Below, piece after piece: positions 7,505 to 26,858 of a DNA stretch of 64,000 nucleotides. A model generated the notes under the pieces. It saw only the letters and a program-made list of their open reading frames with translations, did not search any database and was not told where the DNA came from. Within the stretch, counting starts at the first letter, position 1. Each line of letters opens with the position of its first letter. Source of the DNA: Planctomycetes bacterium UBA1146 (lineage in GTDB: Bacteria; Planctomycetota; UBA8108); NCBI GenBank assembly GCA_963579555.1, contig CAUZHA010000002.1, forward strand, positions 4,307-68,306, given 5' to 3'. The position numbers and the translations under genes are program-made.

Positions 7505-9034
7505 ATGTCGCCTTCTCTCCTGAAGCTCAAATTCGCGGTGTCTGTTGCGCTCGCGGCCGGGATGATCTTCCTCTCCTCCTGCGGGAAGGATCCGGTCGCG
7601 CTCGAACAGGCGGCGACTCCCGAGAAGAGGGTGGAGACCTTCTGCTCTGCCTGCCATCTCCTGCCTCCTCCGGCAACGCTCCCGCGCGGGATGTGGGAAC
7701 GCAAGATCGATGAGATGTACGAGCTGGCCAGGGGGTCGCAGAAAGAGCTGCCGGCCGGGTTGCCGCCGCGAGGGGAGGTGATCACCTATTTCACCAGCCG
7801 CGCGCCAGAGGGACTGCCGGGTCTCTCCCATACGGTCGGCAGGAGGAGTCCCGTCCTCGGCTTCGATCCCATCGGGGTTCGCATCGGCGGGCTCGAATCT
7901 TATCCCGGCGTCTCCAGCGTTCGGCTTGTCAACCTGTCGAGTGTGGATCGCTTTGATCTGCTGATCTGCGAGATGCGCTTCGGCCTGGTGCTGGCGGCGC
8001 GACCTGATCTCGAGCCTCTCGATATACGTGTACTTGGCCGTTGCGACAATCCCTGCACCGCTGAGGTTGTTGACCTCGACCGGGACGGGCACCGTGACCT
8101 GCTCGTCGCGGACCTGGGAACAAGAACGCCGTCTGATGTCAAAAATGGCAAGGTGCTCTGGTTTCGCGGTGATGCGAAGGGGGAGTTCGACGTCATTCCA
8201 CTGGCCAGCGGCCTCGGGCGGGTAGCTCATTGCCAGGCGGCCGATTTTGATGGTGACGGCGATCTCGACATCGTCGTGGCGGTTTTCGGCTGGCGTAAGG
8301 TCGGGAACATCCTGCTTCTTGAAAATGAGACCTCAGATTTTTCTTCTCCCCGGTTCGTGCCGTATGTTCTCGATCCGCGCCCTGGAGCGATCCATGTTCC
8401 TGTTGTGGATCTTGACGGGGATGGTGACCAGGATTTTGTCGCCCTGATATCGCAGCACCATGAGATGATCGTCGCCTTTCTTAACGATGGCAGCGGGGGC
8501 TTCAGGAAGGAGACTGTTTTTCGGGCGCCGCATCCGAACTGGGGATCGACTGGTATCCAGCTGGTCGATATGGACAGGGATGGCGATCTTGACGTCCTCT
8601 CCAGCAATGGCGACAGCCTGGATGATTTTATTCCGAAGCCCTATCACGGCATCCAATGGCATGAGAACGACGGCAGCTATCCATTCCGGGTTCATCCGCT
8701 GACCAATCTCTACGGCTGCAACGCGGCGAAGGCCGCTGATATCGATGGAGACGGGGACGTGGATATCTTCGCCAGTGTCTTCCTGCCCTACATCAGGAAG
8801 GAAACTCCCGGCTCGGAGTTCACCGAGTCGCTGATCTGGCTGGAGCAGGTTGAGCCGGGGCGTTTCGAGCGTTACTCGCTGGAAAAGATGGCCTGCTTCC
8901 ATCCAACGCTTGACCTCGGTGATTTCGACAATGATGGCGACATGGATTTCGTGGTTGGAAATATGACCATGGCCAGGCGCAAGGAGGACACCCTGGCGTA
9001 TTGGGCCGTGCTGTGGAAGAACACGCGTCGCTGA
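7505..9034 (+). CDS. FG-GAP/VCBS-repeat lipoprotein with N-terminal CxxCH heme-binding-type motif
   Basis: Lipoprotein signal (LSSCGK). CSACH motif near the N-terminus. Six Asp-rich FG-GAP-like repeats (DLDRDGHRDLLVAD, DFDGDGDLDIVVA, DLDGDGDQDFVAL, DMDRDGDLDVLSS, DIDGDGDVDIFAS, DFDNDGDMDFVVG). Confidence 0.7.
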   Translation: MSPSLLKLKFAVSVALAAGMIFLSSCGKDPVALEQAATPEKRVETFCSACHLLPPPATLPRGMWERKIDEMYELARGSQKELPAGLPPRGEVITYFTSRAPEGLPGLSHTVGRRSPVLGFDPIGVRIGGLESYPGVSSVRLVNLSSVDRFDLLICEMRFGLVLAARPDLEPLDIRVLGRCDNPCTAEVVDLDRDGHRDLLVADLGTRTPSDVKNGKVLWFRGDAKGEFDVIPLASGLGRVAHCQAADFDGDGDLDIVVAVFGWRKVGNILLLENETSDFSSPRFVPYVLDPRPGAIHVPVVDLDGDGDQDFVALISQHHEMIVAFLNDGSGGFRKETVFRAPHPNWGSTGIQLVDMDRDGDLDVLSSNGDSLDDFIPKPYHGIQWHENDGSYPFRVHPLTNLYGCNAAKAADIDGDGDVDIFASVFLPYIRKETPGSEFTESLIWLEQVEPGRFERYSLEKMACFHPTLDLGDFDNDGDMDFVVGNMTMARRKEDTLAYWAVLWKNTRR

Positions 9035-9439: not shown

Positions 9440-9615
9440 TTGTGATTATTAAACAGGTTGGCACGGGACTTGATCTGTATTCCGAGGGGAAGCAGTGTAG
9501 ATAGCCGGTAATGATCAGAGAAATTGTCGAGGTAGAGTGGTTGCCAGGATCAGCGTTTGGACAAAATGAGGATTCACGCCCTGCGGCGGGTCCCTACGGA
9601 TTCGAGGTTCTCTCT

Positions 9616-9996
9616 ATGGAGGATGCTTGCGTCCGCACCGATGAGACGCGGGAGCGCGGCTTCAGCCTGCTCGAGGTCGCCTTGTCGACGGTGATTCTCG
9701 GCGCGGTGCTCATCGGTACGCTCGGCTCGCTTTCAGTTGCGGCCATCGGCCAGCGTCACGATGGGTCGAGGGTGGAGAGCCAGCTGCTGCTGTCTCGTGT
9801 CATGGAGGAGCTCCGAGCCACGGCGTTCAATTCACTGGTGAGCTATGATGGGACCTGGATCGAGGAGGGCCGGCATCGAGCCGACATCAATGTCTCTCCC
9901 CGCGGCCCCGGCCTGCTCAAGCTCTCAGTGAGGGTTTGGCAGCTGGAAAATGAGGAGATCGAGACACGCGGGGTCCTGCTGGTTACGAGCCCCTAG
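9616..9996 (+). CDS. Prepilin-type N-terminal cleavage/methylation domain protein (pseudopilin-like)
   Basis: A start at the internal ATG gives a 15-aa leader MEDACVRTDETRERG, followed by FSLLEVALSTVILGAVLIG. This fits the G-F-[ST]-L-[LI]-E prepilin signature with a hydrophobic helix. Confidence 0.55.
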   Translation: MEDACVRTDETRERGFSLLEVALSTVILGAVLIGTLGSLSVAAIGQRHDGSRVESQLLLSRVMEELRATAFNSLVSYDGTWIEEGRHRADINVSPRGPGLLKLSVRVWQLENEEIETRGVLLVTSP

Positions 9997-10009
9997 GAGC
10001 TTTTTTCTG

Positions 10010-10636
10010 ATGAACACAACTCTACGACAATTCAGATCTCCTTCAGCACCCGGCGCTCATCCTTCCGAGGCGGGCTTTACGCTGGTGGAGGTTTCCGTCG
10101 CGGTGGCCGTGGGGGCGCTCTGTATGATGGTACTCGGCCAGGCGCTCTCGAGCGCGGCGGGTTCGAGCGAGTCCATCGTTCGCCAGGCTGAAATGCTCAA
10201 CGGAGTCCAGAGGTGTATGGAGGATCTGCGCAAGGAGCTGCGCTGCGCGAGCGCCGACCTGGCGGAAATATCCGGCTCGGATGGAAATGATGTCCTGGTG
10301 CTCAAGACCAGCGGTTCTTTTTCCGACGGCTTTCGTTGGGGTGCCTGCGACGAGACGGGCGTCTGGCAGGCGGGCTGGTCAGCGCGCTTTCGCGTTGTTG
10401 ACGGCCACCTGGTGCGTGAGGCGCTTGATATTGCCGGGCGCGTCAGGGGAGAGGCCCGGTTGCTGGTGAGGGGAGTGGCTGCAGAGGGGGGTGACGAAAA
10501 GGGCTTCTCGGTTGAGAAGACCGGCTCTCTTTTCAATGTGGAGCTCAGGTTGCTGAGGAGATTTCGCAACGGGACGGAGCTGCGGCGTGTTTTTTCGACA
10601 TCGGTTAAATCCTTGCCCGGCCTTCTTGGAGGCTGA
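10010..10636 (+). CDS. Prepilin-type N-terminal cleavage/methylation domain protein (pseudopilin-like)
   Basis: Leader MNTTLRQFRSPSAPGAHPSEAG, followed by FTLVEVSVAVAVGALCMMVLG. Start chosen at the ATG at 10010 inside the longer ORF. Confidence 0.55.
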   Translation: MNTTLRQFRSPSAPGAHPSEAGFTLVEVSVAVAVGALCMMVLGQALSSAAGSSESIVRQAEMLNGVQRCMEDLRKELRCASADLAEISGSDGNDVLVLKTSGSFSDGFRWGACDETGVWQAGWSARFRVVDGHLVREALDIAGRVRGEARLLVRGVAAEGGDEKGFSVEKTGSLFNVELRLLRRFRNGTELRRVFSTSVKSLPGLLGG

Positions 10637-12633
10637 TGGCCGGCCGCGCGACAAGAGGTCCGGAGGAGTTGATTCCAGTGTTACGAGATACTAAAGATTA
10701 CCAGGGTGCGAGCACGAGCGAAGCGGGCTATTTCAGCCTGCTGCTCGTTGTTGGCGTGTCGCTGATCGCCACCGCCGTATTGACCGCGACGGCTACGATG
10801 GCCACATCGACACGAGATGTTCGCCGCAGGGGGAACCTCGCCGCCGCCCGCCTGGCGGCCCGGTCGGGAATTGCCGAACAGGTTGCTGATATTGTCGCTG
10901 TACGTGACATGGCCCCGGTCGGCGAGCCCTTCAGCGGCCTGGACAGCATTGACAGGAACCAGCTCCAGGGGCCGGGAGGCTTCACGGCTACGGTTACCGG
11001 CAGGTTCCTGGATGATCACGAGGGAACGCCGGTTGCCCAGTACGATGTCTTTGTCGATTCGCTGGCGGGCTCCTCGATCTCCCGCCGCCTGGCGATCTCT
11101 TCTTACGCCTACGTCCCTGGCAAGGCGGCTTACGATTCGGGGGATCCGGATGCCGCCAGGGCGGATGCCCACGCCGTGGTAGAGGTTCGTTTCCAGGGCA
11201 GCGAGGTCTTTGACTATTCGTATTTCATCAATCACTGGGGCTGGTTCTTTGGCGATGATATCGCTTCCAACGGTAACGTTCGCTCCAACGGCCAGTTTGA
11301 TTTCGGACATCACAGCTCCGCCGTCAATGGTAGCCCGCGATACGAGGCTTCCCATGGCTCCCAGCTGCTGGGGTACATTGATGACAATGGTGATGGCGTC
11401 AAGGATGGAAGCGATGGGGGAGTTTATTCCTCCGTCTCCGTCATGAACGCCGACAATGTAAATGGGAGCGCCGGGGTGTCGAGCAATCGTCACGTAACCC
11501 CTGAAGTGGTCGAGATGCCGAATCTGGACAATCTCTCTTTTTACGAACAGAAAGCTGTTGCCCGCAACTCCAGTATTGGTGTGGCGGGGTCTTTTGAGGT
11601 AGACGGCGTTCTTGGTGATGGCGACACAGAGCCGCAAAACCTCTACCTGGTTGGAACGCGAGAGGCACCAGTTGTTCTCAACGGTCCGGTGGTGGTTCGG
11701 GGGAGCGTCATTATCTCAGGCTACGTAAGCGGGCAGGGCTCCATCTACGCCGGCGGCAATATCTACGTTGCCGACGATCTGCTCTATCTGAACCCGCCCG
11801 ACAGCATTCGTCCGGATTCGAATGACCAGCAGAGTGTGGAGAGATGGCGGTCTGAATCCGCCGCACGGGACTCGCTGGGTCTCTTCGCAAGGGAACATAT
11901 CGTGGTGGGCGATTATACCGATGATTGGTGGCAGACAAATGTTTCCGACTGGGTCAACCACGATCTGAATAAATCCCGCGAAGATGCCGGCAGCGATGGA
12001 ATCCAGAATACCCGCGAGGGCCCCGATGGCATCCTGGGCACCGCGGACGATGATTTTATGGAGGATGATGGAGTCTGGACCGTGAACCACTACACCGAGG
12101 AAGATGCCGAGAGAGGGCTGATTCCCGAGGGCAGCAGGCCTGGCGATGTCATCCCCGGCAGCGGGGAGGATATCGATGGAGATGGTCGGTATGACGACAC
12201 CACCAGGATGTCGGAGTTTGATCTTCCCCAGGCGCTCTCACAGGAGGCCTGGGGCGGCAATCTCCAGGAGGGCGAGGATCTCACCTATTCGCAGGTCGCC
12301 ACGTCCGAGATCGGGCGTCTCGATGCGGCCTTCTACACCAACCACACCTTTGCGGCAGTGGTTTCGAATCCTAATGGGGTTATCCAGGTGAACGGCGCGG
12401 TTGTTTCCCGTAATGAATCGATCATCTATGCAGCAGATGGACTGGAGCTGAATCACGATGAGAGGCTCACCGGCAGGGGAAACCAGCAGAGTGGTTTTGA
12501 TAGTCCTCTCGGCTGGGATCCGGTCAGGTTTATCCACTGGGATTTTGACAAGCTTCTCCCGGCGGAGATTGTCACTTCTACAGAGAGGATCGCCGACTAT
12601 CTTGGCGGCATTTCAGGCGGAGGAGGAGAATGA
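10636..12633 (+). CDS. Large secreted Asp/Gly-rich protein with pilin-like N-terminal hydrophobic segment
   Basis: 665 aa. The N-terminus SEAGYFSLLLVVGVSLIATAVL resembles a pseudopilin anchor but lacks the conserved Glu at +5. Many DG/DD-rich stretches suggest calcium binding. Start overlaps the stop of the previous gene. Confidence 0.5.
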   Translation: MAGRATRGPEELIPVLRDTKDYQGASTSEAGYFSLLLVVGVSLIATAVLTATATMATSTRDVRRRGNLAAARLAARSGIAEQVADIVAVRDMAPVGEPFSGLDSIDRNQLQGPGGFTATVTGRFLDDHEGTPVAQYDVFVDSLAGSSISRRLAISSYAYVPGKAAYDSGDPDAARADAHAVVEVRFQGSEVFDYSYFINHWGWFFGDDIASNGNVRSNGQFDFGHHSSAVNGSPRYEASHGSQLLGYIDDNGDGVKDGSDGGVYSSVSVMNADNVNGSAGVSSNRHVTPEVVEMPNLDNLSFYEQKAVARNSSIGVAGSFEVDGVLGDGDTEPQNLYLVGTREAPVVLNGPVVVRGSVIISGYVSGQGSIYAGGNIYVADDLLYLNPPDSIRPDSNDQQSVERWRSESAARDSLGLFAREHIVVGDYTDDWWQTNVSDWVNHDLNKSREDAGSDGIQNTREGPDGILGTADDDFMEDDGVWTVNHYTEEDAERGLIPEGSRPGDVIPGSGEDIDGDGRYDDTTRMSEFDLPQALSQEAWGGNLQEGEDLTYSQVATSEIGRLDAAFYTNHTFAAVVSNPNGVIQVNGAVVSRNESIIYAADGLELNHDERLTGRGNQQSGFDSPLGWDPVRFIHWDFDKLLPAEIVTSTERIADYLGGISGGGGE

Positions 12634-13148
12634 TGCGGGTGCTCAGGCTGTTTGCTTTCCTGGTTGTGATCGGAATATTCGTGCCGTCCTCGGCGGGAGC
12701 CGGAGAAAAATTACTCCAGCCCAGCTCCGGCAGGAAGGCCACCCCCACGGCGGGGGTCAGGCATCTCTTCATCAACAAGACGGCTATCGCTGAGCGTGCC
12801 GAGGCCCGGCGGAAGGCTCTTCCATCTCAGGGGAACCCGAACGCGGGCCGTGGATTCCTCCTCGAGAAGGCCCAGGGAGGGCATGGTACCGACAGGCTCT
12901 CAATGGCGAAGCTGCGTCATCGGCAGCTCGAGGGCTATAGGCGCCGGGAGATGACTTCTGCCTCGCCCGCGGACCTTGCCGGGAAGCGAGAGGCTCAGGC
13001 GAGTGGAGCATCAGTGAAGAAGGAGTCTGGAGGCGGCTATTCCGCGATCGCCTGCGCCTTCGGCGCCCTGGCAGCCGCGGTCTTCGTGGTATCGCTCAGG
13101 CGCAGGGGACGTCGAGAGGGTGAAAAGAAAAAAGCGCGCAGGTTCTGA
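12630..13148 (+). CDS. Secreted protein with C-terminal hydrophobic anchor and basic tail
   Basis: Signal peptide (LFAFLVVIGIFVPSSAGA). C-terminal GGYSAIACAFGALAAAVFVVSLRRRGRREGEKKKARRF. 4-nt overlap with the upstream gene. Confidence 0.45.
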   Translation: MMRVLRLFAFLVVIGIFVPSSAGAGEKLLQPSSGRKATPTAGVRHLFINKTAIAERAEARRKALPSQGNPNAGRGFLLEKAQGGHGTDRLSMAKLRHRQLEGYRRREMTSASPADLAGKREAQASGASVKKESGGGYSAIACAFGALAAAVFVVSLRRRGRREGEKKKARRF

Positions 13149-13461: not shown

Positions 13462-14118
13462 TCAGCCGCCGCCGAGACAGCCGGATTTTTCGACTGTCAG
13501 GTAGTGATCGAGAGCCTCCCTGGTCGGGGTTTCGACGAGCATGATGGTCGGCATGATGGCTTCGGCCTCTTTGCCCGGGAGGCGCTTCTTTGAAACAACC
13601 GTTCTGCCGCTCTCATCGAGCTCGATTTCCTCGGCCGGCTTCGCCGGGTTTGCCTCGGCTGCAGCCTGTTCAGCGTCGAGCCACCTTCCGCTTCTTTTTG
13701 CGTGGCGCAGCGCCCGTTTGAGAACCTCCTGGGGGAAATTAAAGAAGGTCTGGAGCTTCCTGCCTTGCGGATCAGAGTAGATGTTTCTCCACGCACCCTC
13801 GAAAAAGCGAACACCCTTCCTGGGAGTCTTGTAGGACTCCGCCGCCGAGATGTGGATCAGCCCCTTGTAGATGTCTCCCTGGTAGCTTTCCTTGACCGCG
13901 AATTGGTGGATCTTGTGATCCTTGGTGTTGGAAAGTCCGCCCTGGACGGTGAGGGTTGTTTTGAAGCCCTTGATCTTTGAGAGGTTTTTCGCGGCCTTCG
14001 CCAACTGCGAATAGGGAGAGGGAATCTTCTTCTTGGAAGAATCTCCTGCGAAGAGAAGTCCCGTACAGGCGGTCATTAGCGCCACGGGTAGCAGGATCCT
14101 GGTAAAGAGTGATCTCAT
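13462..14118 (-). CDS. Putative lipoprotein (ends at TGA, see findings)
   Basis: Lipoprotein-type signal (LLPVALMTACTG). 218 aa. Terminates ...HYLTVEKSGCLGGG followed by TGA. Confidence 0.55.
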   Translation of the reverse strand: MRSLFTRILLPVALMTACTGLLFAGDSSKKKIPSPYSQLAKAAKNLSKIKGFKTTLTVQGGLSNTKDHKIHQFAVKESYQGDIYKGLIHISAAESYKTPRKGVRFFEGAWRNIYSDPQGRKLQTFFNFPQEVLKRALRHAKRSGRWLDAEQAAAEANPAKPAEEIELDESGRTVVSKKRLPGKEAEAIMPTIMLVETPTREALDHYLTVEKSGCLGGG

Positions 14119-14276: not shown

Positions 14277-17200
14277 TTATTTTATGACCTTGCGGGTTAC
14301 CCGCAGGCCGCTGAGTATCGGCGGAAGCTCTCCATGGGCTTTCAACTTCAAGCGCAGGTTTTCTTCCAGGAAGACATCTTCGATTGTCTTGATGATGCTT
14401 CGCCGAGGGCCGCCGGCCTCAGCGGCAATGTCCAGTTTCTCGATCCGTACGGTTCCATCAAGCACTACATCGAAGATTCGCCGACCCGCTGCGGCGTCCT
14501 CCGGTTCGGCGAATACAAGCTGGACGGTGTAGAGGTTCTTGGCTGCTTCTTTCGCGGGCCTTCGCATATTCCAATGGCCAGCGATATTCTCAGCGGCAAC
14601 GGCCGCGTCTTTTTTACACAGGAATTGAGCTGGCGAAAGACTTACCTTGGAGACCCGCAGCTCGTCGATGAGGTTGTTACCTCCCTTGGCGCCCTTGGCG
14701 AGCTCGTATTTCGGTTTTTTATCGTCCCACCACAGGGCTCGGTTTGCTGGTCCCTGGTGGTCGCCCGCCAACTCGCCATCGATATACAGGGCGCCTCGTC
14801 CTGTTGCGGCATCGTAGGTGAAGGCTATGTGGGTCCATTTGTCCCCGGGAAGCTCCTTGCCGAGCTCGAGCCGGATCTCCTTTTCGTTGTTGTCGCCGGC
14901 CTCGTTGGCGACAAAGTACCGAACCCTAACCTTGCGGTTGTCGACTACGAATCCGTGCTGCTTATCCTTGCCCGATCCCCTGGTATCAACATAGTCGATG
15001 TTGGAATTGACAAGCACCTTCATTTCGACAGAGATGCTGGCTGGCGCGAGTTCCTCGTAGCCCTCGATCTTTGCTTCGATCGCATCCTTGCCGCCGTCCT
15101 GTCCAAGGCTGCCGGAGAGTCCCGGGTTGCCCCCGGCGTTTCCAGGCGAGTCGTCGTAGAGCTTCGCCCGGCTGGCGATGACTGGGCTTCGGCCCTTGAC
15201 GAGATTCTCAAGCTCAAGGGCCCGGGCTGTTTTCTTCCTGAGAGGAATGATGATTTCCGCCTCTCCCTCAAGGACAGAAGAGGCCACCCAGGGGAGCTCT
15301 CCAGCCTCCAGCAGGCCGGAGTGGATGCGCCTGTACCGGAGGTCTTTGCCGCTCAGCTTGACCCTGGCGTCAGGCGATGGGCCGCCCACGCTGGGGTAAT
15401 CAATCCAATAGGTGCCGTCTTTCGCCCGGCGGTCTCCCGGCGCTCCGAAGTTGAGGCCGAGGTCGCTGACGTCTTTGTCATCATTCTTGTAGGTGGTGAA
15501 GGTCCACATCTCGGCTTCGGGCATGTGCACAAAGGCGAGAGAGGCCTGGTTTTGATAGGAGCAGGTACAGGTGCGAGTGTAGTCGGGGGCGTTGAGGATC
15601 CCCCCAGCTGGGATCAGGTTGGCTGTGCAGCCGGATCGGAAACCCCCGAGGTTACCGGTTCCCGAGTCGCTGGTGAGATCGTAGTAACCCGCGGCCGCCG
15701 AGCGGAAGGTTATCATGGTGGGGCAGCCGATGGCGGTATTGCAGCCATAGTTTCTCGTATAGGACCAGTTCACCGGTTGGCCGGAGAAAGGATGAGTCCG
15801 CTGGATTCGCTTGCCTGTCTTCAGCTCGTAGGCATGTCCGGCATTGGCATCGGCCTGGGTCACGATCATCTGCCCAACGAGGATCGGGGGGCCGAAGTAT
15901 TTTTCGGAATGTTCCCACAGCTTCTCGCCGGTGGTTCCCCGGTAGGCGACCATGCCCTGGCCGACCTCATCTCCAGCCCGGTCCCTCGCCTTGCTGCCCG
16001 CCTGGAGCAGGATGTCGAATTCTTCCGAATAGCCGAGCCAGGTTCCGAAGACTCTCTCCTGAACCTTCCAGAGCAGTTTTCCGGTGCCCATCTCTAGCGC
16101 CTTGATGGACCGGGCTTCCTGGGCGACCTTGCCTCTTCGCTTGAAGTAGTTGAGCTGCGCGTCCGTCAGCCGGTCCACGAAGAAGATCTTGCCGTTACCG
16201 GCGGCCAGGGTGTTGTGTCGGATATTGTAGCTCGCCTCGTGTTCGCAGATGATCTTGCCGGTCTTGCGGTCCAGCACCGCGACCTTCTTGCTGCCGACTC
16301 CGACCCAGCTGCCATCCTTGCCCGCGGCCTTGGGCTTGTATTCTGGCAGGCCGAAGATCTTGCTGAAGATCGTTCGCTTGATCCGTACGGCCGCGGCATC
16401 CGATGCGGTCCTTCCGGGAACCGCCTCCAGGTATTTGCGCAGCTGTTTCTGGAGCTCGTCGGTTCCGGCCTTTGCCCTGACCTTGGGGGGTATCTTCTGG
16501 TAAATCGCCCCGGAGGTCAGGAGCCTGTTGAGATTCACGCCCAGGTGATCTTTGCTGTTCTGCTTCTTGCCCCTGGCTGTCACCTCGAAATTTTTCAGGC
16601 TGGCGAGCCGTCCAAGCAGGTTCTTGACCTTGTCATCTTTCAGCCCATCAATTTCAGCCTTCGAGTAATCCGGATAGCGCAGCTCTGTCGGCTGGATTCC
16701 TGCGATGAGGTAGTCTCCCCAGATTCCCAGGTAGCCCCATCCGACTGGTTGGGGCTTTTCTCCGTTGCCGTTGATCTTGAACTCCGAAAGGGTTTTTCCC
16801 GTGTCAGGGTCGAGCTTGAGACAGCTCTTTTTGTAGATCGCGTAAATGCCATCAGCTACCGAGACGTAATTGCTGCCGAGGATATTGGCACCCGGTTGAT
16901 GGTCGGTGTTGTCGTAGGGAACTCCGATATCCTTGAGGGTTCTCTCCCAAAGCAGGCGACCGGTATAGGCATCGACAGCGCGCAGCATGTCACGTCCCTC
17001 GATGATGATCCGTCCCTCAATGAACTGGGGTATCGGTCCGTGGCCATGGCGTGGCAGCACGCCTGAGTTGGACGGACCTCCGAACCAGAGCAGGCCAAGC
17101 GGTGCCCGGACATTCATTTCAGCGGATGCTACGGAATGCGACACATCTCCATACTGATGGCTCCAGCTTCCGGAGCCTGCCGGAGCCGAGGTCTTCCTGA

Positions 17201-19604
17201 CGACCAGGAGATCCTCGCCGGATTCGATTTTGCAGCCATGCAGCTTGTTCGAAGCGAAGGCTTCTTTCAGGGATCCGTCGCCGGTCGGGAGGCAGGCCAT
17301 CCCTGTGAAGGGCCGCAGCAGTTTGAAGACAGCCCGGGTCGAGTCGGCTGGTTTTTCAAGGAGGCCGGTCAGCTGCTCAGAGACAACCAGGTCTGCCATA
17401 TAGGGGGCCAGGGGGAGCCCCACAGGCTTGCCTTCTATGATGGCGACACGCTGCCCGTAGAGGCTCTTTTCATCCAGGCGCCTCCTGGCGGCGGCGACCT
17501 TGTCGCCGTTCGCTTCGATGACGACGATGTGAAGCTCCGACTGCTCCGCCAACGCTGAGACGAGCTGACCTGAGCCGAGCCCGAGAGCCAGGCAGTAGCC
17601 CTTTCGCGTTTTCATACCCTGGAGGATCCGAGTTGCCACGCGCGCCCATTTTTTCTGGGGGTCAGTTCCCTCAACGGCTATTTCAGGTTGGAAAATTCGC
17701 TTCGGGCTGGTGAGAGGGGTCAGGCTCAGGTCGAAGGTCAGGTCCGAGCTGTCGGCTCTTTGTTGATGGACGGCTACCGCCAGCAGATTTTTACCCGGAT
17801 GGAGAAGATTTCCGGGAAGCTTCAGCTTGTCGAAGGTGTTTTCATTTTTGATCTGTATTCCGGAATAGGTCTGGTGGTTGGTCTCGCCTTCGGGCATGCG
17901 CAGGCGGGCGGCCTGCTTTCCGTTGAGATAGATGATGGCGCTGTCGTCGGCCAGGATCTGCAGCTCGAGATCACCGAACTGGAGCCCATCCGGAAGCTCA
18001 AAGGCGTGTCTGAAATAGCAGGCCGCGTGTTTCTTCTTGTCGTTTTTACCGAAGCCAAGACGGGTCTTTTCGTTATTTTCGCCGTATCCAAGCCTGGCCG
18101 GACCCTCCTTCCACTTTGAGTCGTCAAAGCTGATCGATTGCCAATCGGCGCCCGGTCCCTGGCCATCATCCTGATATTTCCAGGTGGCTCCCTTGGATAC
18201 GATGCTCTTGATCTCGACTTTCTTGGCAGCGGGCTCCTTCTTTTTGACCGGGAGCTGGAGGTCTGTTCTCTCTCCTCCAAAGCAATAGATTCTGCCAGCG
18301 GCGGTGCTGACAATGAGCTTCTCATCTCCGGCGATCATGTTGAGCGCCTCGTCGGGGATCGCCATGCTCCAGGCGACCGAGGCTCCGGCGATGATATTGG
18401 AAAAATCGACCGCGAGGATCCGGCTGTCCTCTCCGCTGCAGTAGAGGTGTCTACCCGCCTGGATAAAGACCTTCTTTACCTTCTGGTCAATGGGAGCGGC
18501 CCAGGTTTTGCGAATCCGGATGGAGCTCTGCGCCTTGCCCTTTCGGTCCTTGGTCGTGTGCTTTTCCCATCGCGGCTGGAAGCCTCTGAGGCCCTCTCCA
18601 TCGTGGCAGATGATGGAGCGGTCGTTGATCAGCAGGGCGTCTATCTTGGTGATGAATTTGCCATTGTCCAGGCGGTAGGCGCATTCCCGGTTCAGGTAGA
18701 AATTTTCTCCAAGGACCACATCATAGCCGCCGCCGCCCTTGGTTCCCATATTACGGGCGCTGACGTCGTAGTGTTTTATGGCGCCTGTCTTCCTGTCGTA
18801 GACGGCCGGCATAGTCCGGCCACCGGAGACGACGAGAAAATCTTCGTTCGCAGCGAGGTACCCTTGTGGGGCTATTCCGGAGAAGGCCGGACTGCCATGC
18901 TGCTGGGTCTGGAAGCTGGAGCCCTCGCCGCTATTGGTCCAGATCAGGCGTCCGGTTTCGGCGTCAAGGGCATGCAGGAAGATGCCCATGAAGGGCCAGA
19001 TCCCCGCGCCAAAGTAGATCTTGTCATCGTAGACGACGGGACCGCCGCGAGCGGGCCAGGTGCTTATGAGGCGATCATTTCCGAGCACCCGTCTTTCGTT
19101 GGGACCACCGCGGAACTTCCAGGCGAGCGCGCCATCGGCGGTGTTGAGGCAGTAGAGGTAGCCGTCATCGCAGACGATGAAGATTTTGTCTTTCCAGATG
19201 GCAGGCGCGAATCTGACGGGGCCATTGGTATAAAAGCGCCAGAGCTCTTTCCCTGAGTCGGTATCAAACGCGGTGAGCTTGTCAGAGATCATGGAGGGAA
19301 CGAAAAGCCGTTTCCCAGCGAGAACAGGCTCGTAGAGACGGTCAAATTGCAGCTTTTCCTGGTCAGCCGGCCAGGCGGTGTCAGGTTTCGGCAACTCCAG
19401 CGTCCACTGAAGATAGAGCTTCGCGGGAAGCTCGGCTGCCGAGGTCCCCCGGCGCGAGGCATCTGCCCGCCACATGGGCCAATCAGCCGCGAGGGCGTGA
19501 ACACTGGTGATCAGCAGGAGCGCGATCAGCAGTGGGGCTCTATTCATAAAGAGGGGAAGCAAGACGGAGGTGCGCGGTATTTTCATGAATTCAATAATAG
19601 CCAT
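14277..19604 (-). CDS. Giant secreted PQQ-like beta-propeller repeat protein with embedded class I methyltransferase-like, galactose-binding-like, LamG/ConA-like and malectin-like domains
   Basis: 1775 aa with a signal peptide. Repeated PQQ/BamB-type motifs (DTDSGKELWRF, NTADGALAWKF, DAETGRLIWTN). A region with the Rossmann-type motif LALGLGSGQLV ... ADLVVSEQ. DDSKWKEGPARLGYGEN jelly-roll-like region. C-terminal LELGKELPGDKWTHIAFTYDAATGRGALYIDGEL (LamG-like) and YTVQLVFAEPEDAAAGRRIFDVVLDG (malectin-like Y-V-x-L-x-FAE). Confidence 0.8.
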   Translation of the reverse strand: MAIIEFMKIPRTSVLLPLFMNRAPLLIALLLITSVHALAADWPMWRADASRRGTSAAELPAKLYLQWTLELPKPDTAWPADQEKLQFDRLYEPVLAGKRLFVPSMISDKLTAFDTDSGKELWRFYTNGPVRFAPAIWKDKIFIVCDDGYLYCLNTADGALAWKFRGGPNERRVLGNDRLISTWPARGGPVVYDDKIYFGAGIWPFMGIFLHALDAETGRLIWTNSGEGSSFQTQQHGSPAFSGIAPQGYLAANEDFLVVSGGRTMPAVYDRKTGAIKHYDVSARNMGTKGGGGYDVVLGENFYLNRECAYRLDNGKFITKIDALLINDRSIICHDGEGLRGFQPRWEKHTTKDRKGKAQSSIRIRKTWAAPIDQKVKKVFIQAGRHLYCSGEDSRILAVDFSNIIAGASVAWSMAIPDEALNMIAGDEKLIVSTAAGRIYCFGGERTDLQLPVKKKEPAAKKVEIKSIVSKGATWKYQDDGQGPGADWQSISFDDSKWKEGPARLGYGENNEKTRLGFGKNDKKKHAACYFRHAFELPDGLQFGDLELQILADDSAIIYLNGKQAARLRMPEGETNHQTYSGIQIKNENTFDKLKLPGNLLHPGKNLLAVAVHQQRADSSDLTFDLSLTPLTSPKRIFQPEIAVEGTDPQKKWARVATRILQGMKTRKGYCLALGLGSGQLVSALAEQSELHIVVIEANGDKVAAARRRLDEKSLYGQRVAIIEGKPVGLPLAPYMADLVVSEQLTGLLEKPADSTRAVFKLLRPFTGMACLPTGDGSLKEAFASNKLHGCKIESGEDLLVVRKTSAPAGSGSWSHQYGDVSHSVASAEMNVRAPLGLLWFGGPSNSGVLPRHGHGPIPQFIEGRIIIEGRDMLRAVDAYTGRLLWERTLKDIGVPYDNTDHQPGANILGSNYVSVADGIYAIYKKSCLKLDPDTGKTLSEFKINGNGEKPQPVGWGYLGIWGDYLIAGIQPTELRYPDYSKAEIDGLKDDKVKNLLGRLASLKNFEVTARGKKQNSKDHLGVNLNRLLTSGAIYQKIPPKVRAKAGTDELQKQLRKYLEAVPGRTASDAAAVRIKRTIFSKIFGLPEYKPKAAGKDGSWVGVGSKKVAVLDRKTGKIICEHEASYNIRHNTLAAGNGKIFFVDRLTDAQLNYFKRRGKVAQEARSIKALEMGTGKLLWKVQERVFGTWLGYSEEFDILLQAGSKARDRAGDEVGQGMVAYRGTTGEKLWEHSEKYFGPPILVGQMIVTQADANAGHAYELKTGKRIQRTHPFSGQPVNWSYTRNYGCNTAIGCPTMITFRSAAAGYYDLTSDSGTGNLGGFRSGCTANLIPAGGILNAPDYTRTCTCSYQNQASLAFVHMPEAEMWTFTTYKNDDKDVSDLGLNFGAPGDRRAKDGTYWIDYPSVGGPSPDARVKLSGKDLRYRRIHSGLLEAGELPWVASSVLEGEAEIIIPLRKKTARALELENLVKGRSPVIASRAKLYDDSPGNAGGNPGLSGSLGQDGGKDAIEAKIEGYEELAPASISVEMKVLVNSNIDYVDTRGSGKDKQHGFVVDNRKVRVRYFVANEAGDNNEKEIRLELGKELPGDKWTHIAFTYDAATGRGALYIDGELAGDHQGPANRALWWDDKKPKYELAKGAKGGNNLIDELRVSKVSLSPAQFLCKKDAAVAAENIAGHWNMRRPAKEAAKNLYTVQLVFAEPEDAAAGRRIFDVVLDGTVRIEKLDIAAEAGGPRRSIIKTIEDVFLEENLRLKLKAHGELPPILSGLRVTRKVIK

Positions 19605-19717: not shown

Positions 19718-21235
19718 TCAATCGAGGTCGAAGCGGACGCCTTGGGCCAGCGGCAGCTCCGTTCCATAGTTGATCGTGCAGGTCTGGCGGCGCATATAGG
19801 CTTTCCAGGAGTCGGACCCGGCCTCCCGCCCGCCGCCAGTCTCCTTTTCACCTCCGAAGGCTCCCCCTATCTCGGCGCCGCTTGTTCCGATGTTGACGTT
19901 GGCGATTCCACAATCGCTGCCGGCAACGGAAAGGAATCGCTCCGCGTTCCTGACCGAGTCGGTGAAAATCGCCGACGAAAGGCCCTGTCGAACGTTGTTC
20001 TGCGCCGAGATGGCTTCATCCAGATCATCCGTCTCTAGCAGGTAGAGAATGGGGGCGAAGGTCTCTTCACGGACGATCTCCATCCCGGAATCAGCCTTGA
20101 TAAGGGTGGGCTGCACGAAGAAGCCCGGTCCCTCGATTACCTGGCCCCCGGTCAGGATCTCGCCGCCGTTGGCGCGGGCCGTTGCTACGGCTTTTTCAAA
20201 GGTTCTGACCGCATCCTCATCGATGAGGGGGCCGACCAGGGTCTTTGGGTCAAGCGGGTCGCCCACGATGACGGATTCGAAGGCCTCGGTCAGTCTCTGT
20301 GCCAGCGTTGGGAAGATTCTTTTTTGTGCCAGCACTCTCCTGGTCGTTGTACACCGCTGCCCCGCCGTTCCCAGTGAACCGAAGAGTACGGCCCTGAGGC
20401 CCAGATCGATGTCGGCATCATCCAGGATGATGATCGCGTTGTTGCCGCCCAACTCGAGCAGGCTTCGTCCCATTCGTCCGGCGACGGCCACAGCTACTTT
20501 TCGTCCCATTCGGCAGCTTCCGGTCGCGCTGATCAATGGCAGGCGTTCATCCGTCGCGATTCGCTCGCCGGTTTCAATTCCTCCGCAGCAGAGGTTGAAG
20601 ACCCCGGCGAGCCCTTCTGGTTCGAGCACCCGGTTGCAGATTTTTTGTACGGCAATTGCCGTCAGGGGCGTTTTCTCGGAGGGTTTCCAGACGATGGTAT
20701 CACCGCAGATGGCCGCGACCAACGCGTTCCAGGCCCAGACGGCTACGGGAAAGTTGAAGGCGGTGATGACTCCCACCGGGCCAAGGGGGTGCCATTGTTC
20801 GAACATCCTGTGATCAGGACGCTCGCTTGGCAGGGTGGCTCCGCCGATCGTACGTGAGAGTCCTACCGCGAAGTCGGCAATATCAATCATCTCCTGGACT
20901 TCTCCCTCACCCTCGGAGAGTACCTTGCCGCACTCGAGGGAGACGAGCTTTCCAAGGGGTTCCTTGAACCGCCTGAGCTCTTCACCAATAAGCCTGATAT
21001 ATTCTCCCCGGCGGGGGGCTGGGAGCTTTTTCCAGCCTTCAAATGAGTTGTACGCGCCCTGGATGGTGTTAAGGGTTTCCTCCGAGGTTGCACCAGCCAC
21101 CCTGGCAAGCTCTTCAGAGTTCGCAGGATTGATGGAGACAAGCTCTTCACCTTGTCCGGACCAGTTACCATTCGAGCAGACTCCAGCCTCTACAGGCTGC
21201 AGGTCGAGCTCTGGGGGTATTTCGCGAGTATTCAT
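19718..21235 (-). CDS. Aldehyde dehydrogenase, ALDH7 (antiquitin / alpha-aminoadipic semialdehyde dehydrogenase)-like
   Basis: LECGKVLSEGEGEVQEMIDIADFAVGLSR closely matches the ALDH7 signature region. ELGGNNA and GQRCT catalytic-Cys motifs are present. Confidence 0.85.
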   Translation of the reverse strand: MNTREIPPELDLQPVEAGVCSNGNWSGQGEELVSINPANSEELARVAGATSEETLNTIQGAYNSFEGWKKLPAPRRGEYIRLIGEELRRFKEPLGKLVSLECGKVLSEGEGEVQEMIDIADFAVGLSRTIGGATLPSERPDHRMFEQWHPLGPVGVITAFNFPVAVWAWNALVAAICGDTIVWKPSEKTPLTAIAVQKICNRVLEPEGLAGVFNLCCGGIETGERIATDERLPLISATGSCRMGRKVAVAVAGRMGRSLLELGGNNAIIILDDADIDLGLRAVLFGSLGTAGQRCTTTRRVLAQKRIFPTLAQRLTEAFESVIVGDPLDPKTLVGPLIDEDAVRTFEKAVATARANGGEILTGGQVIEGPGFFVQPTLIKADSGMEIVREETFAPILYLLETDDLDEAISAQNNVRQGLSSAIFTDSVRNAERFLSVAGSDCGIANVNIGTSGAEIGGAFGGEKETGGGREAGSDSWKAYMRRQTCTINYGTELPLAQGVRFDLD

Positions 21236-24734: not shown

Positions 24735-24902
24735 GAGAAGCGGCGCCTGGCGGTCACAAGTGGATTGCGAATCGTCCTGCTGGAAAATAAAATGATCTGA
24801 AAGAAGTTTCAGCGGGGAGGACGAACCACGCGATGTGATTTGAGCTTTCCGGATGATCTAATACTGACCCACACGGTCTCTCCTGAATCGTCAACACCAT
24901 CC

Positions 24903-26858
24903 ATGAAATCAATCGCCTGCATGATCCTGCTGCTGTTGCCCGGTATGGGGCCAGGCCTGGGGGCCGCTGAGCGGTCCCCGGCCCTGGAGGTTCTCGAATC
25001 TCGATGTCTCGGCTGTCATGACTCGGACACGCGCAAGGGGGGGATCGACCTCGAGCAGCTTCTCTCCGCCCCGGATCCACTCGCTGAGAAGATCGCGGCC
25101 CTGTGGGAGAAGGTCGACCAGGCCGTCGGCGAAGGCGAGATGCCGCCAAAGAAGAAGAAGCCCCTGACCACCGCGCAGAAGGCGCAGATCGCCGGCTGGT
25201 TCGAGGAGACCTACGTCCTGAAGGACGGCAAGGAACACATCGGCGAGTCGAGGCTGCGGAGGCTGAGCCGCTATGAGTTCATCAATACGCTCGAGGAGCT
25301 GTTGCGGGTCTCGCTGAAGCAACCCTATGTCTACAGCCCGGAATTCCCCGCCTTCCTGCCCTCCACGCTGGAGACGATCCTGCCGCCTGATGCGCCGGGT
25401 GAATCCGGCTTCTGCAATGACGCGGCTCAGCTGGCCGGATCCAGGCCGCCGATCCTGAAATACAATGAGGCTTTCGACTACGCCCTGAGGATTTTTGAGC
25501 AGGCCCCCGCGGCTCGCGAAAAAGTTTTCGGGTTCAAGGGCGCCTCGCCCAAGCTGACCGAGGAGCAGGCCGGGAAGATTCTCCGCCGCTTCCTGGCCCG
25601 GGCCTGGCGCGGCTATAAGAACGCGGAGAGTGAAGAGGTGGTGCTGAACGCCTACCGCACCCGCCGTAAAAAAGAGGCGCCGGTTTCTTCACTTCTGTAT
25701 GCGCTGAAGATCGGCCTCCTCTCGCCGCCCTTTGTCTACCGGATCGAGACGGTCAGGAACAAGGCGCTGCCCTACAGGGTCAGCGCCTACGAGCTCGCAA
25801 GCCGTCTCTCGTATTTCCTGTGGGCCTCCATGCCCGACGATGAGCTGTTCGCCCTGGCGGCGGATGGTCGCCTGCTCGATGAGACGGTTCTCGCCGGGCA
25901 GGTCGGCCGGATGCTGAAATCTCCCCGCCGCATCTCCCTGTCGGAAGATTTTGCCGGGCAGTGGCTGGGATTTGGCGAGCTGTGGACCAACAAGGCCTTC
26001 TACCGGAACGAAAGATGGAGCCGCGGCATCTACGATGAGCTGCTGTTTTTCTTCGATGAGCTGATCAAGTCCGACCGCAGCATCCTGGAGGTCGTCGACT
26101 CGGACTGGATCTACCAGAGCGACTACACCGGCGTTCGTACCGCGGGCAAGGGGCACTCTTTCGCCACGAAGCATGGGGACATTTTCGGGTCGCGCCGCGA
26201 GAACCCCCCGGGAATCCAGGAACAATTCTACAAGCCTCCGCGTCTTATCAGGATCAAGAGCGAGCAGCGGGGAGGTCTCATTACCACCGTTGGAATTTTG
26301 CGGGTGACCTCCGCTCCCGAGAAGACGAATCCCATCCGCCGGGGAGTCTGGCTGCTGGACAGGATCATCGGGCGTCCGCTGCACGCGCCGGAAAATGTTC
26401 CGGCCCTGAGCAAGAGCGAGAAGGTGGATGGGAAGAAGCTCACAGACCTTGCCGACATCCTGAAGGCGCATACCGGCAAGGCGATCTGCGTCAGCTGTCA
26501 CAAGCACATCGACCCTCTCGGGCTTGGTCTCGAGAACTTCGATCCCTTCGGGAAATGGAGGACCTCCTACAGGAACAAGCGTCCGGTCAGGTCCAGCGGA
26601 GTGTTTCCCAATGGAGACACCTTCAAGACGCCGCGGCAGATGAAGCAGATCCTGGTGGAAGAATACCGCGAGCCGATCGTGAAGAACGTCGCCGCCCGGC
26701 TGCTCTCCTACGCGCTCGGCCGCAAGCTGCGGCCCTATGACCGGACCGAGCTGAAAAGAATTTGCGACAACCTCGAACGGGATGGCTTTAAGATCAACTC
26801 GTTGATTGCCGACATCATCAGGAGTAAGCGGTTTCAATGTCGACAGGACCAGCCATGA
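24903..26858 (+). CDS. DUF1592/DUF1585/DUF1587/DUF1588/DUF1595-family protein with Planctomycete cytochrome-c-like CxxCH motifs
   Basis: Signal peptide. LESRCLGCHDSDTRKGGIDL (PSCyt-like). RLSRYEFINTLEELL. C-terminal CVSCHKHIDPLGLGLENFDPFGKWR. Typical partner of a DUF1552 gene. Confidence 0.75.
   Translation: MKSIACMILLLLPGMGPGLGAAERSPALEVLESRCLGCHDSDTRKGGIDLEQLLSAPDPLAEKIAALWEKVDQAVGEGEMPPKKKKPLTTAQKAQIAGWFEETYVLKDGKEHIGESRLRRLSRYEFINTLEELLRVSLKQPYVYSPEFPAFLPSTLETILPPDAPGESGFCNDAAQLAGSRPPILKYNEAFDYALRIFEQAPAAREKVFGFKGASPKLTEEQAGKILRRFLARAWRGYKNAESEEVVLNAYRTRRKKEAPVSSLLYALKIGLLSPPFVYRIETVRNKALPYRVSAYELASRLSYFLWASMPDDELFALAADGRLLDETVLAGQVGRMLKSPRRISLSEDFAGQWLGFGELWTNKAFYRNERWSRGIYDELLFFFDELIKSDRSILEVVDSDWIYQSDYTGVRTAGKGHSFATKHGDIFGSRRENPPGIQEQFYKPPRLIRIKSEQRGGLITTVGILRVTSAPEKTNPIRRGVWLLDRIIGRPLHAPENVPALSKSEKVDGKKLTDLADILKAHTGKAICVSCHKHIDPLGLGLENFDPFGKWRTSYRNKRPVRSSGVFPNGDTFKTPRQMKQILVEEYREPIVKNVAARLLSYALGRKLRPYDRTELKRICDNLERDGFKINSLIADIIRSKRFQCRQDQP

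Follow-up and report, generated by a model that had tools for sequence, protein, structure and literature searches.

The window analysed here is a stretch of 64,000 nucleotides from Planctomycetes bacterium UBA1146. The gene under study occupies positions 14277–19604 on its minus strand and, according to the ORF listing and its translation, encodes a multidomain protein of 1775 aa that is predicted to be exported. The original prediction had reported this ORF correctly, with no strand given, and the minus strand is added here. No internal stops are found within the frame, which forms a single ORF, and public collections contain an identical sequence inside a 52-member cluster at 90% identity. 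A promoter/terminator scan around the gene returned nothing exceeding background.

The N-terminus carries a Sec-type signal peptide (residues 1–39, positions 19488–19604), read from the sequence as …LLIALLLITSVHALA followed by ADWPMWR, with cleavage predicted between HALA and AD. Within this leader, M7 may be the real start codon. A hydrophobic leader followed by DWPMWR is also present in most sampled members of the family, in agreement with the earlier description of the protein as secreted. The predicted cleavage site is without a cysteine, and there is therefore no lipobox at that position. On these grounds, the protein is probably exported by the Sec route and is either periplasmic or surface-associated.

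The mature protein is comprised of a series of domains, all encoded on the minus strand. Propeller 1 (residues 41–446, positions 18267–19484) is a PQQ/BamB-like β-propeller of about 8 blades. It is followed by an accessory jelly-roll, galactose-binding-domain-like and putatively of the CBM67/GH2-N type as judged by profile comparison with the PDB (residues 447–640, positions 17685–18266), and by a class-I methyltransferase (MTase)-fold Rossmann domain (residues 648–806, positions 17187–17663). A hyperconserved linker with the pattern W-S-H-Q-Y…PLGLLWFGGP…LPRHGHGP, delimited by conservation and models (residues 807–866, positions 17007–17186), leads into the first blades of propeller 2, which were placed from models, conservation, and dN/dS (residues 867–981, positions 16662–17006). 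A loop of propeller 2 contains a helical insert (residues 982–1100, positions 16305–16661; helices at model residues 347–449), after which the remaining blades are recognised in alignments and by conservation (residues 1101–1460, positions 15225–16304). The C-terminal part holds an accessory LamG/ConA-like module (residues 1517–1660, positions 14625–15056) and a malectin domain (residues about 1681–1775, positions 14280–14564).

In the Pfam scan, PQQ_2 was matched over four stretches (E 2e-28), together with the PQQ model. Methyltransf_11 covered residues 672–765 with 25.2 bits against a gathering cut-off of 21.2, Laminin_G_3 (PF13385) covered residues 1517–1660 (E 6e-12; 46.4 against 27.6), and Malectin (PF11721) covered residues 1692–1750 (E 7e-9; 36.2 bits against 23). 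The four models named in the original prediction (PQQ_2, Methyltransf_11, Laminin_G_3, and Malectin) are thus all matched, and its domain order, from signal peptide through propeller, jelly-roll, MTase, propeller, and LamG to malectin, is correct, as is its count of three carbohydrate-binding-type modules. No significant family was found for the linker or the helical insert in Pfam and NCBIfam scans.

The protein is a member of a large family, which groups into about 600 clusters at 50% identity and into over 3,000 at 90%; an exhaustive search with the propeller-2 segment 1101–1460 returned 597 clusters at E<=1e-30. The family occurs mainly in Planctomycetota but extends to Hydrogenedentota, Kiritimatiellae, Opitutales, and Armatimonadota, all of which are groups known for polymer degradation. 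Its invariant core consists of propeller 1, the MTase fold, the 60-residue linker, propeller 2, and usually malectin. The present protein has this core in collinear order together with all family motifs (WxHQY…LLWFGG…PRHGHGP, YGC, FRSGC, and PDYTRxCxC), and it is 45% to 92% identical to the full-length members. Databases label the family only as "PQQ-binding-like beta-propeller repeat protein" or "BamB", and no paper on a propeller-MTase-propeller architecture was found in a literature search.

The possibility that the gene is a mis-assembled or mis-called fusion, which had been raised in the original prediction, is refuted by this distribution: the same architecture of 1730–1776 aa recurs on many independent contigs, in homologs down to 45% identity. 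The uninterrupted frame and the predicted structure, in which the core forms one confident body (pTM 0.86), also speak against an artefact, the chance of which we regard as negligible. The model in addition indicates that the three core domains are probably held in a fixed arrangement.

Outside the core, the composition of the family is variable, the carbohydrate-binding modules differing from lineage to lineage. The jelly-roll profile matches the CBM67 region of rhamnosidase 3w5m (residues 250–357, E 1.3e-11), and the same profile, built on residues 447–640, also matches GH2 N-terminal sugar-binding domains (1e-4 to 1e-2). This module is missing from minimal family members and LamG is missing in most members; both are movable accessories. 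Residues 982–1100 represent a variable insertion slot of the family, being missing from the minimal homologs P0086 and P0078, while the slot holds a jelly-roll in P0064, P0083, and P0106. Malectin is present in 28 of 31 diverse representatives, and the decorations seen across the family include Malectin_like, PA14, NPCBM, LamG, and CBM67-like modules. These CBM67/GH2-N-like, Laminin_G_3, and Malectin (CBM57) assignments are above-threshold sequence matches, here attached to a non-CAZyme core, and it is from the lectin-type modules alone that a glycan is suggested as the target.

A second reading frame, at 52934–54724, had been described as a smaller relative. It proved to be a different, stop-interrupted PQQ_2/jelly-roll gene, in which one frame is broken by an in-frame TAG at 53693–53695. 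Its similarity to the 14277–19604 protein is limited to generic PQQ blades (27%) and a shared jelly-roll type (28%), and it has no MTase fold, conserved linker, or propeller-2 motifs; it is therefore not counted as a family member.

With regard to the gene neighbourhood, the gene located 113 bp upstream in the same orientation codes for an aldehyde dehydrogenase. Its product matches Aldedh nearly end to end (residues 28–485 of 505), so that hardly any sequence remains for a leader. Synteny of the aldehyde dehydrogenase, HEAT-repeat, and PSCyt/PSD neighbours is confined to close relatives, and the neighbours of distant homologs are unrelated. A downstream gene for a lipoprotein-like protein of 218 aa, without a significant family in Pfam/NCBIfam scans, follows the gene only in this clade and in L013. 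No conserved neighbourhood, and hence no functional lead, emerged across the homologs compared.

The aldehyde dehydrogenase gene and the Pfam matches to PQQ and PQQ_2 could be taken to mean that the propellers bind PQQ and a metal and catalyse the oxidation of an alcohol or sugar, whose product the neighbouring enzyme could then use. Such a PQQ-dependent dehydrogenase is very improbable and was rejected, because the scores fall far below the curated cut-offs (TIGR03075, 39.7 bits against 480; TIGR03074, 10 against 833). BamB-type propellers match better than true quinoproteins, the neighbour is syntenic in close relatives only and has hardly any sequence for a leader, and the motifs PRHGHGP and CxC are, to our knowledge, not among the quinoprotein signatures. 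The "PQQ-propeller" of the original prediction is thus right with respect to the type of repeat, but PQQ here is the name of a repeat only. An identity as BamB was likewise rejected (TIGR03300, 49.1 against 285; NF008351, 44.8 against 423) for a protein of 1775 aa with two propellers and no lipobox. BamB, a lipoprotein of about 390 aa, and the related YxaL and Rv3035 are single propellers of about 350–400 aa that serve as protein-binding scaffolds, whereas the present protein links two propellers through an MTase fold and a hyperconserved linker and carries lectin modules in addition.

The embedded class-I MTase fold itself is genuine. In addition to the Methyltransf_11 score, the family profile matches 3dlc in the PDB (E 2.5e-6), and an AlphaFold model (pLDDT 83) retrieves 3dlc (1e-9), RebM, Bud23, TleD, and BezA with Foldseek, as well as AtmM, SpnF, and SpnL. 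The model shows a Rossmann-like seven-stranded α/β fold with a β6-β7 hairpin. The MTase-like fold of the original prediction is thereby borne out, both by the sequence scores and by structure prediction of the region. It had also been called unexpected inside a secreted protein; it is no oddity of one gene, as the fold was found in all of 120 close homologs and in all of 101 full-length representatives at 50% identity and forms an obligatory core across the approximately 600 clusters.

In class-I MTases, an acid at the end of β2 binds the ribose of SAM, and an acid after β3 (the GD motif) contacts adenine N6. The present protein shares with such enzymes (3dlc MMP1179 and RebM) the seven-stranded Rossmann topology, motif I, the β2 acid, and LRPxGG, all of which are intact: the SAM-site residues G675-x-G677-x-G679 (GLGSG) and E697 are present. 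The acid after β3 is lacking, K726 standing where the consensus has D, a position assigned from the 3dlc alignment. As judged from the residues, the SAM signature of this copy is almost complete, and it might still bind SAM, SAH, or a different adenosyl ligand to some degree. The earlier suggestion of a degenerate structural domain is therefore favoured at the level of the family but not for this copy, and "degenerate" is used here as a family-level statement only, because GLGSG and E697 are intact in this protein.

For the family as a whole, SAM-site residues were counted in 83 non-redundant representatives and the shares of conserved positions in 101. Only 30 of the 83 have the complete SAM signature. 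G677 is kept in 45 and all three glycines in 37, a charged residue occupies a glycine position in 34, and the β2 acid and a D or E after β3 occur in 72 and 57, respectively. The losses are linked, the β2 acid being present in 37 of 37 representatives with an intact glycine loop and in 35 of 46 with a broken one (Fisher p=0.0009). Erosion thus affects the glycine loop together with both SAM-contacting acids and has occurred repeatedly, in scattered lineages; on a deep, poorly resolved NJ tree, the scatter amounts to 24 Fitch changes over 78 leaves, versus 26±2 for shuffled states. On the other hand, representatives with a broken loop still keep PRHGHGP (36/46) and PDY[TS]RxCxC (40/46).

Rates of evolution follow the same division. 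Relative to four close relatives, dN/dS is 0.24–0.41 for the MTase domain and 0.07–0.14 for the propellers, so that the former evolves about 3 times faster and is the fastest of the core domains; values of 0.24–0.41 are still those of purifying selection. Only 3.8% of MTase positions are conserved in at least 95% of representatives, the polar ones being R707, Y735, and R764, none of which is a canonical SAM contact, and among 31 diverse members, Pfam detects the MTase domain in no more than 7 to 9. Together, these patterns show that SAM binding, as predicted from its signature residues, is not what the family conserves.

An active extracytoplasmic SAM-dependent methyltransferase, acting for example on glycan hydroxyl or carboxyl groups of a substrate held by the propellers and lectin modules, has to be weighed against these data. 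Besides the motifs intact in this copy, its wider subfamily keeps G675, G677, and G679 in 117, 109, and 109 of 121 members and the β2 acid in 120 of 121, and the nearest structures include the sugar and natural-product O-/C-MTases RebM, AtmM, TleD, and BezA. The intact loop in about 45% of lineages, with the ribose acid always kept, has the appearance of a subset under selection to bind a ligand, to which this lineage would belong. However, the loop is disrupted in more than half of the non-redundant members while the propeller motifs are largely kept, K726 replaces the adenine-binding acid, the domain diverges fastest, and R707, Y735, and R764 are the only conserved residues of catalytic type. 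The location also argues against activity: the Sec-type signal peptide directs the domain away from the cytoplasm, and Sec export delivers proteins unfolded into a compartment without a known supply of SAM. No precedent for a periplasmic methyltransferase was found in a literature search. Methyl transfer by this protein is accordingly considered quite unlikely. In contrast to class-I MTases, the host protein is exported by Sec, the signature has been lost in more than half of the family, and conserved substrate-side catalytic residues are lacking. SpnF and SpnL, MTase-fold proteins with roles other than methyl transfer, provide a precedent for such use of the fold.

Conservation is concentrated elsewhere. 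In the linker, 31.7% of positions are conserved in at least 95% of the 101 representatives, the highest share of any segment, and the models show little regular secondary structure there (pLDDT 61–73). The corresponding shares are 11.3% in the first blades of propeller 2, where dN/dS is 0.07–0.08, and 13.9% in residues 1101–1460, which include four Cys in the aligned motifs RNYGC1288, FRSGC1326, and PDYTRTC1346-T-C1348-SYQ. His816, His853, His902, His1130, these four Cys, and several Arg, Tyr, and Asp are near-invariant, and the propellers are 45–50% identical across phyla. With these fixed His, Cys, Arg, Tyr, and Asp residues, the linker and propeller 2 are conserved in the manner of an enzyme.

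The best Foldseek match of propeller 2 is tetrathionate hydrolase 6l8a (1e-12), a PQQ-like propeller enzyme without a cofactor. This hydrolase is exported and needs no PQQ, which shows that a propeller of this kind can be catalytic. It is only 10–20% identical to the present protein and is a single propeller without the MTase fold, lectin modules, PRHGHGP, or CxC. The linker and propeller-2 centre, with PRHGHGP and four near-invariant Cys including the CxC, could conceivably form an exported site of a new kind, catalytic or cofactor-bearing, that resembles none characterised so far.

It could also be supposed that the protein is a non-catalytic glycan-binding scaffold or adhesin, whose only task would be to bind polysaccharide or protein partners on the cell surface or within the matrix in the way that Bap1/RbmC or the BamB, YxaL, and Rv3035 propellers do, as the several lectin-type modules suggest and as would suit the fact that no enzyme-family model matched above its cut-off. 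Adhesins usually diverge fast, whereas this family shows enzyme-like conservation in its propellers and linker, and the lectin modules, the expected business end of an adhesin, are its variable part. Among adhesins, the Vibrio cholerae biofilm matrix proteins Bap1/RbmC offer a comparison, Bap1 being an adhesin that is without an MTase fold or second propeller and does not show invariant residues of the enzyme-like kind. A pure scaffold is thus possible but unlikely. In the "glycan-binding or glycan-processing scaffold" of the original prediction, the word "scaffold" undersells a protein whose linker and propeller 2 are conserved like those of an enzyme.

The reading that we favour, by a little better than an even chance, is that the family comprises exported, glycan-targeted probable enzymes with an exapted MTase-fold connector. 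The MTase-fold domain would serve mainly as a pseudoenzyme-like connector that positions the two propellers and the linker, and the sequence patterns suggest that it is mostly a structural relic, with the working centre in the second propeller. The conserved activity would reside in the linker and propeller 2 and would probably consist in either acting catalytically on a glycan or another polymer outside the cytoplasm or recognising it tightly, at a site predicted from conservation to contain many His, Cys, Arg, Tyr, and Asp residues. The malectin, LamG, and jelly-roll modules would target the protein to carbohydrate. It is conceivable, at rather long odds, that lineages with the full SAM signature, including this marine planctomycete clade, have a working extracytoplasmic cofactor site. 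Their protein would then be either a SAM-dependent methyltransferase that modifies a glycan bound by the propellers and lectin modules, the first such bacterial enzyme in the periplasm or outside the cell, or a SAM/SAH/adenosyl sensor gating the propeller-2 site.

The family offers a natural experiment in which an enzyme fold has been turned into a structural module, the fold remaining obligatory while the cofactor site is recurrently lost, and it directs the search for the functional centre to the hyperconserved linker and propeller 2. If members with an intact signature do bind SAM outside the cytoplasm, methyl transfer in bacteria could no longer be assumed to be restricted to the cytoplasm; if not, two misleading annotations, as a PQQ enzyme and as BamB, would be corrected for thousands of sequences.

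The 1775-aa protein (hereafter the giant) is encoded by a single ORF of 1775 codons (14277..19604, minus strand), as seen in the ORF listing and its translation, and the N-terminus carries a predicted Sec-type leader, read from the sequence as …LLIALLLITSVHALA followed directly by ADWPMWR. Pfam places PQQ_2 in four stretches (2e-28), Methyltransf_11 at residues 672-765 (25.2 bits against a gathering cut-off of 21.2), Laminin_G_3 at residues 1517-1660 (6e-12), and Malectin at residues 1692-1750 (7e-9). The Pfam signal is weak at residues 447-640, where a profile built from family members matches 3w5m, a Streptomyces rhamnosidase, across its CBM67 region (1.3e-11), as well as GH2 N-terminal sugar-binding domains. 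The Pfam matches and this profile therefore bear out the domain order of the original prediction (signal peptide, PQQ repeats, jelly-roll, methyltransferase-like segment, further PQQ repeats, LamG, and malectin), whose observation on this gene is confirmed. A mis-assembled fusion, which had been considered, is ruled out: the exact protein is already present in public collections, its 90%-identity cluster holds 52 members on independent contigs, full-length collinear homologs reach down to ~45% identity, and relatives occur at 42 genomic loci. The closest genomic relatives, marine MAGs of Planctomycetota that include UBA1662 (90% identity), and PSCyt/PSD-type genes nearby place the window in this phylum.

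Comparison of the giant with shorter family members yields a core comprised of propeller 1 (41-446), the class-I methyltransferase (MTase) fold (648-806), a linker (807-866), propeller 2 (867-981 and 1101-1460), and a C-terminal malectin after propeller 2, while the jelly-roll and LamG modules are accessories. The propeller-2 loop at residues 982-1100 (16305-16661, minus strand) is an insertion hot-spot across the family; it contains a helical bundle of ~100 aa in the giant, is empty in minimal members, and holds a CBM67-like jelly-roll in many others. When residues 1101-1460 were used as the query of an exhaustive HMMER search, 597 clusters at 50% identity scored E<=1e-30. Both propellers are present in 101 of the new representatives, every one of which has the MTase-fold domain as well; the shorter matches are N-terminally truncated fragments. 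By this census, the MTase fold is obligatory in the family. Export is predicted from the leader, since most sampled members begin with a hydrophobic segment followed by DWPMWR.

Several lines of evidence indicate that the MTase fold is genuine, as originally called. A profile of 33 family segments matches the SAM-MTase 3dlc at 2.5e-6, with an alignment that spans motif I, the β2 acid, and the GD…LVVS region. In the AlphaFold model of residues 636-1475 (pLDDT 83, pTM 0.83), this part is a domain of alternating β-strands and helices that closes with a β6-β7 hairpin, and Foldseek relates it to 3dlc (1e-9), RebM, Bud23, TleD, BezA, and SpnF, the last of which is a cyclase with an MTase fold.

With regard to the SAM site, the giant has an intact motif I (G675, G677, and G679) and the ribose-binding acid E697, but carries K726 in place of the acid that would contact adenine. 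The 120 closest homologs preserve the signature well. In contrast, among 83 non-redundant representatives, whose alignment was inspected and found sound, 37 have all three glycines, 72 retain the β2 acid, 57 retain the adenine acid, and only 30 show the full signature. G677 is kept in 45/83 and is often replaced by D, E, or R, and a charged residue occupies a glycine position in 34/83. The near-invariant positions of the fold (G669, R707, G717, R719, P733, Y735, and R764-P-Y-x-G768) include no canonical SAM contact. The SAM contacts decay together: the β2 acid is found in 37/37 representatives with an intact loop versus 35/46 with a broken one (Fisher p=0.0009). This coupling, together with the near-complete motifs of the giant, keeps alive the main alternative, in which lineages with an intact signature have an MTase or SAM-binding module that works outside the cytoplasm. 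However, Sec export leads to a compartment without known SAM supply, a literature search found no precedent for a periplasmic methyltransferase, and K726 also speaks against it in the giant. On an NJ tree of the linker and propeller 2, itself deep and poorly resolved, intact and eroded states look scattered (24 parsimony changes over 78 leaves versus 26±2 when shuffled). Broken-loop representatives mostly retain the motifs PRHGHGP (36/46) and PDY[TS]RxCxC (40/46). Loss of the SAM signature is recurrent, and the propeller motifs are retained where it occurs. Out of 31 diverse long members, Pfam detects the MTase in just 7 to 9. Against four close relatives, dN/dS is 0.24-0.41 for the MTase fold versus 0.07-0.14 for the propellers, showing relaxed constraint on the fold.

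Conservation instead peaks in the linker and propeller 2, judging from 101 full-length representatives: positions at least 95% conserved make up 31.7% of the linker, 11-14% of propeller 2, 3.8% of the MTase fold, and ~1% of the malectin. Near-invariant polar residues run from the linker into early propeller 2 (W814, H816, R852, H853, R865, D878, H902, N912, and Y921) and through later propeller 2 (R1113, H1130, D1144, D1208, E1213, R1284, C1288, R1301, C1326, N1329, Y1342, C1346, C1348, Y1350, and R1392), an enzyme-like, not an adhesin-like, pattern. At two positions at least 95% conserved, the giant itself deviates, with S for the family T at residue 815 (17160-17162, minus strand) and C for W at residue 1120 (16245-16247, minus strand). 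Of the conserved parts, the linker and the Cys-rich loops have the lowest confidence in both models, and this confidence rises once propeller 1 is included; the pattern could reflect packing between domains or the absence of a ligand or metal. The giant falls short of the curated models for PQQ dehydrogenase and BamB, and both assignments were rejected.

Comparison of distant homolog loci revealed no conserved gene neighbourhood around the giant beyond close relatives. Directly downstream lies a 218-aa lipoprotein-like ORF (MRSLF…LMTAC; 13462-14118, minus strand) without a Pfam match, possibly a clade-specific partner, whose position is the same in all close relatives and in L013 (about 45-47% identity), a locus with a homolog at 50% identity to the giant, and is lost at more distant loci. 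An aldehyde dehydrogenase gene (19718-21235, minus strand; Aldedh, 6e-127) ends 113 bp upstream on the same strand, a synteny limited to close relatives. Four plus-strand ORFs at 9511-13148 may represent a pseudopilin or secretion-related cluster, because their order is conserved in related MAGs; one of them (9950-10636) encodes a protein with a prepilin-type N-methylation motif, and the ORFs after it, of 665 and 172 aa, gave no Pfam match. A planctomycete-specific PSCyt1/PSD2-5 (DUF1585/1588/1592/1595) cytochrome-like protein and the conserved 536-aa ORF that follows it (24840-28447, plus strand) form a gene pair typical of planctomycetes. A 509-aa FG-GAP/VCBS-repeat protein (7505-9034, plus strand; FG-GAP_3, 1.7e-34) is a further exported-looking, propeller-type repeat protein close to the giant. 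The ORF at 52934-54724 (plus strand), proposed as a smaller relative, does share the jelly-roll type (GH2-N/BetaGal_ABD2, inserted in a blade loop); it is a different PQQ_2 propeller outside the family, with 27-28% identity to the giant in generic parts only. Its one reading frame is broken by an in-frame TAG (53693-53695), which makes the gene a pseudogene or a site of recoding unless the stop is a sequencing error.

The MTase fold would best be seen as an exapted connector, with a conserved, putative activity carried by the linker and propeller 2. All of the variable modules (malectin, Malectin_like, PA14, NPCBM, LamG, and CBM67-like) belong to carbohydrate-binding types, and on this one basis the lectin modules may direct the protein to a glycan. 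The original interpretation, largely right, needs to be reframed from an odd MTase in one giant to a family-wide picture, in which a large group of exported twin-propeller proteins always carries an MTase fold with an eroding cofactor site and probably has its active centre elsewhere.
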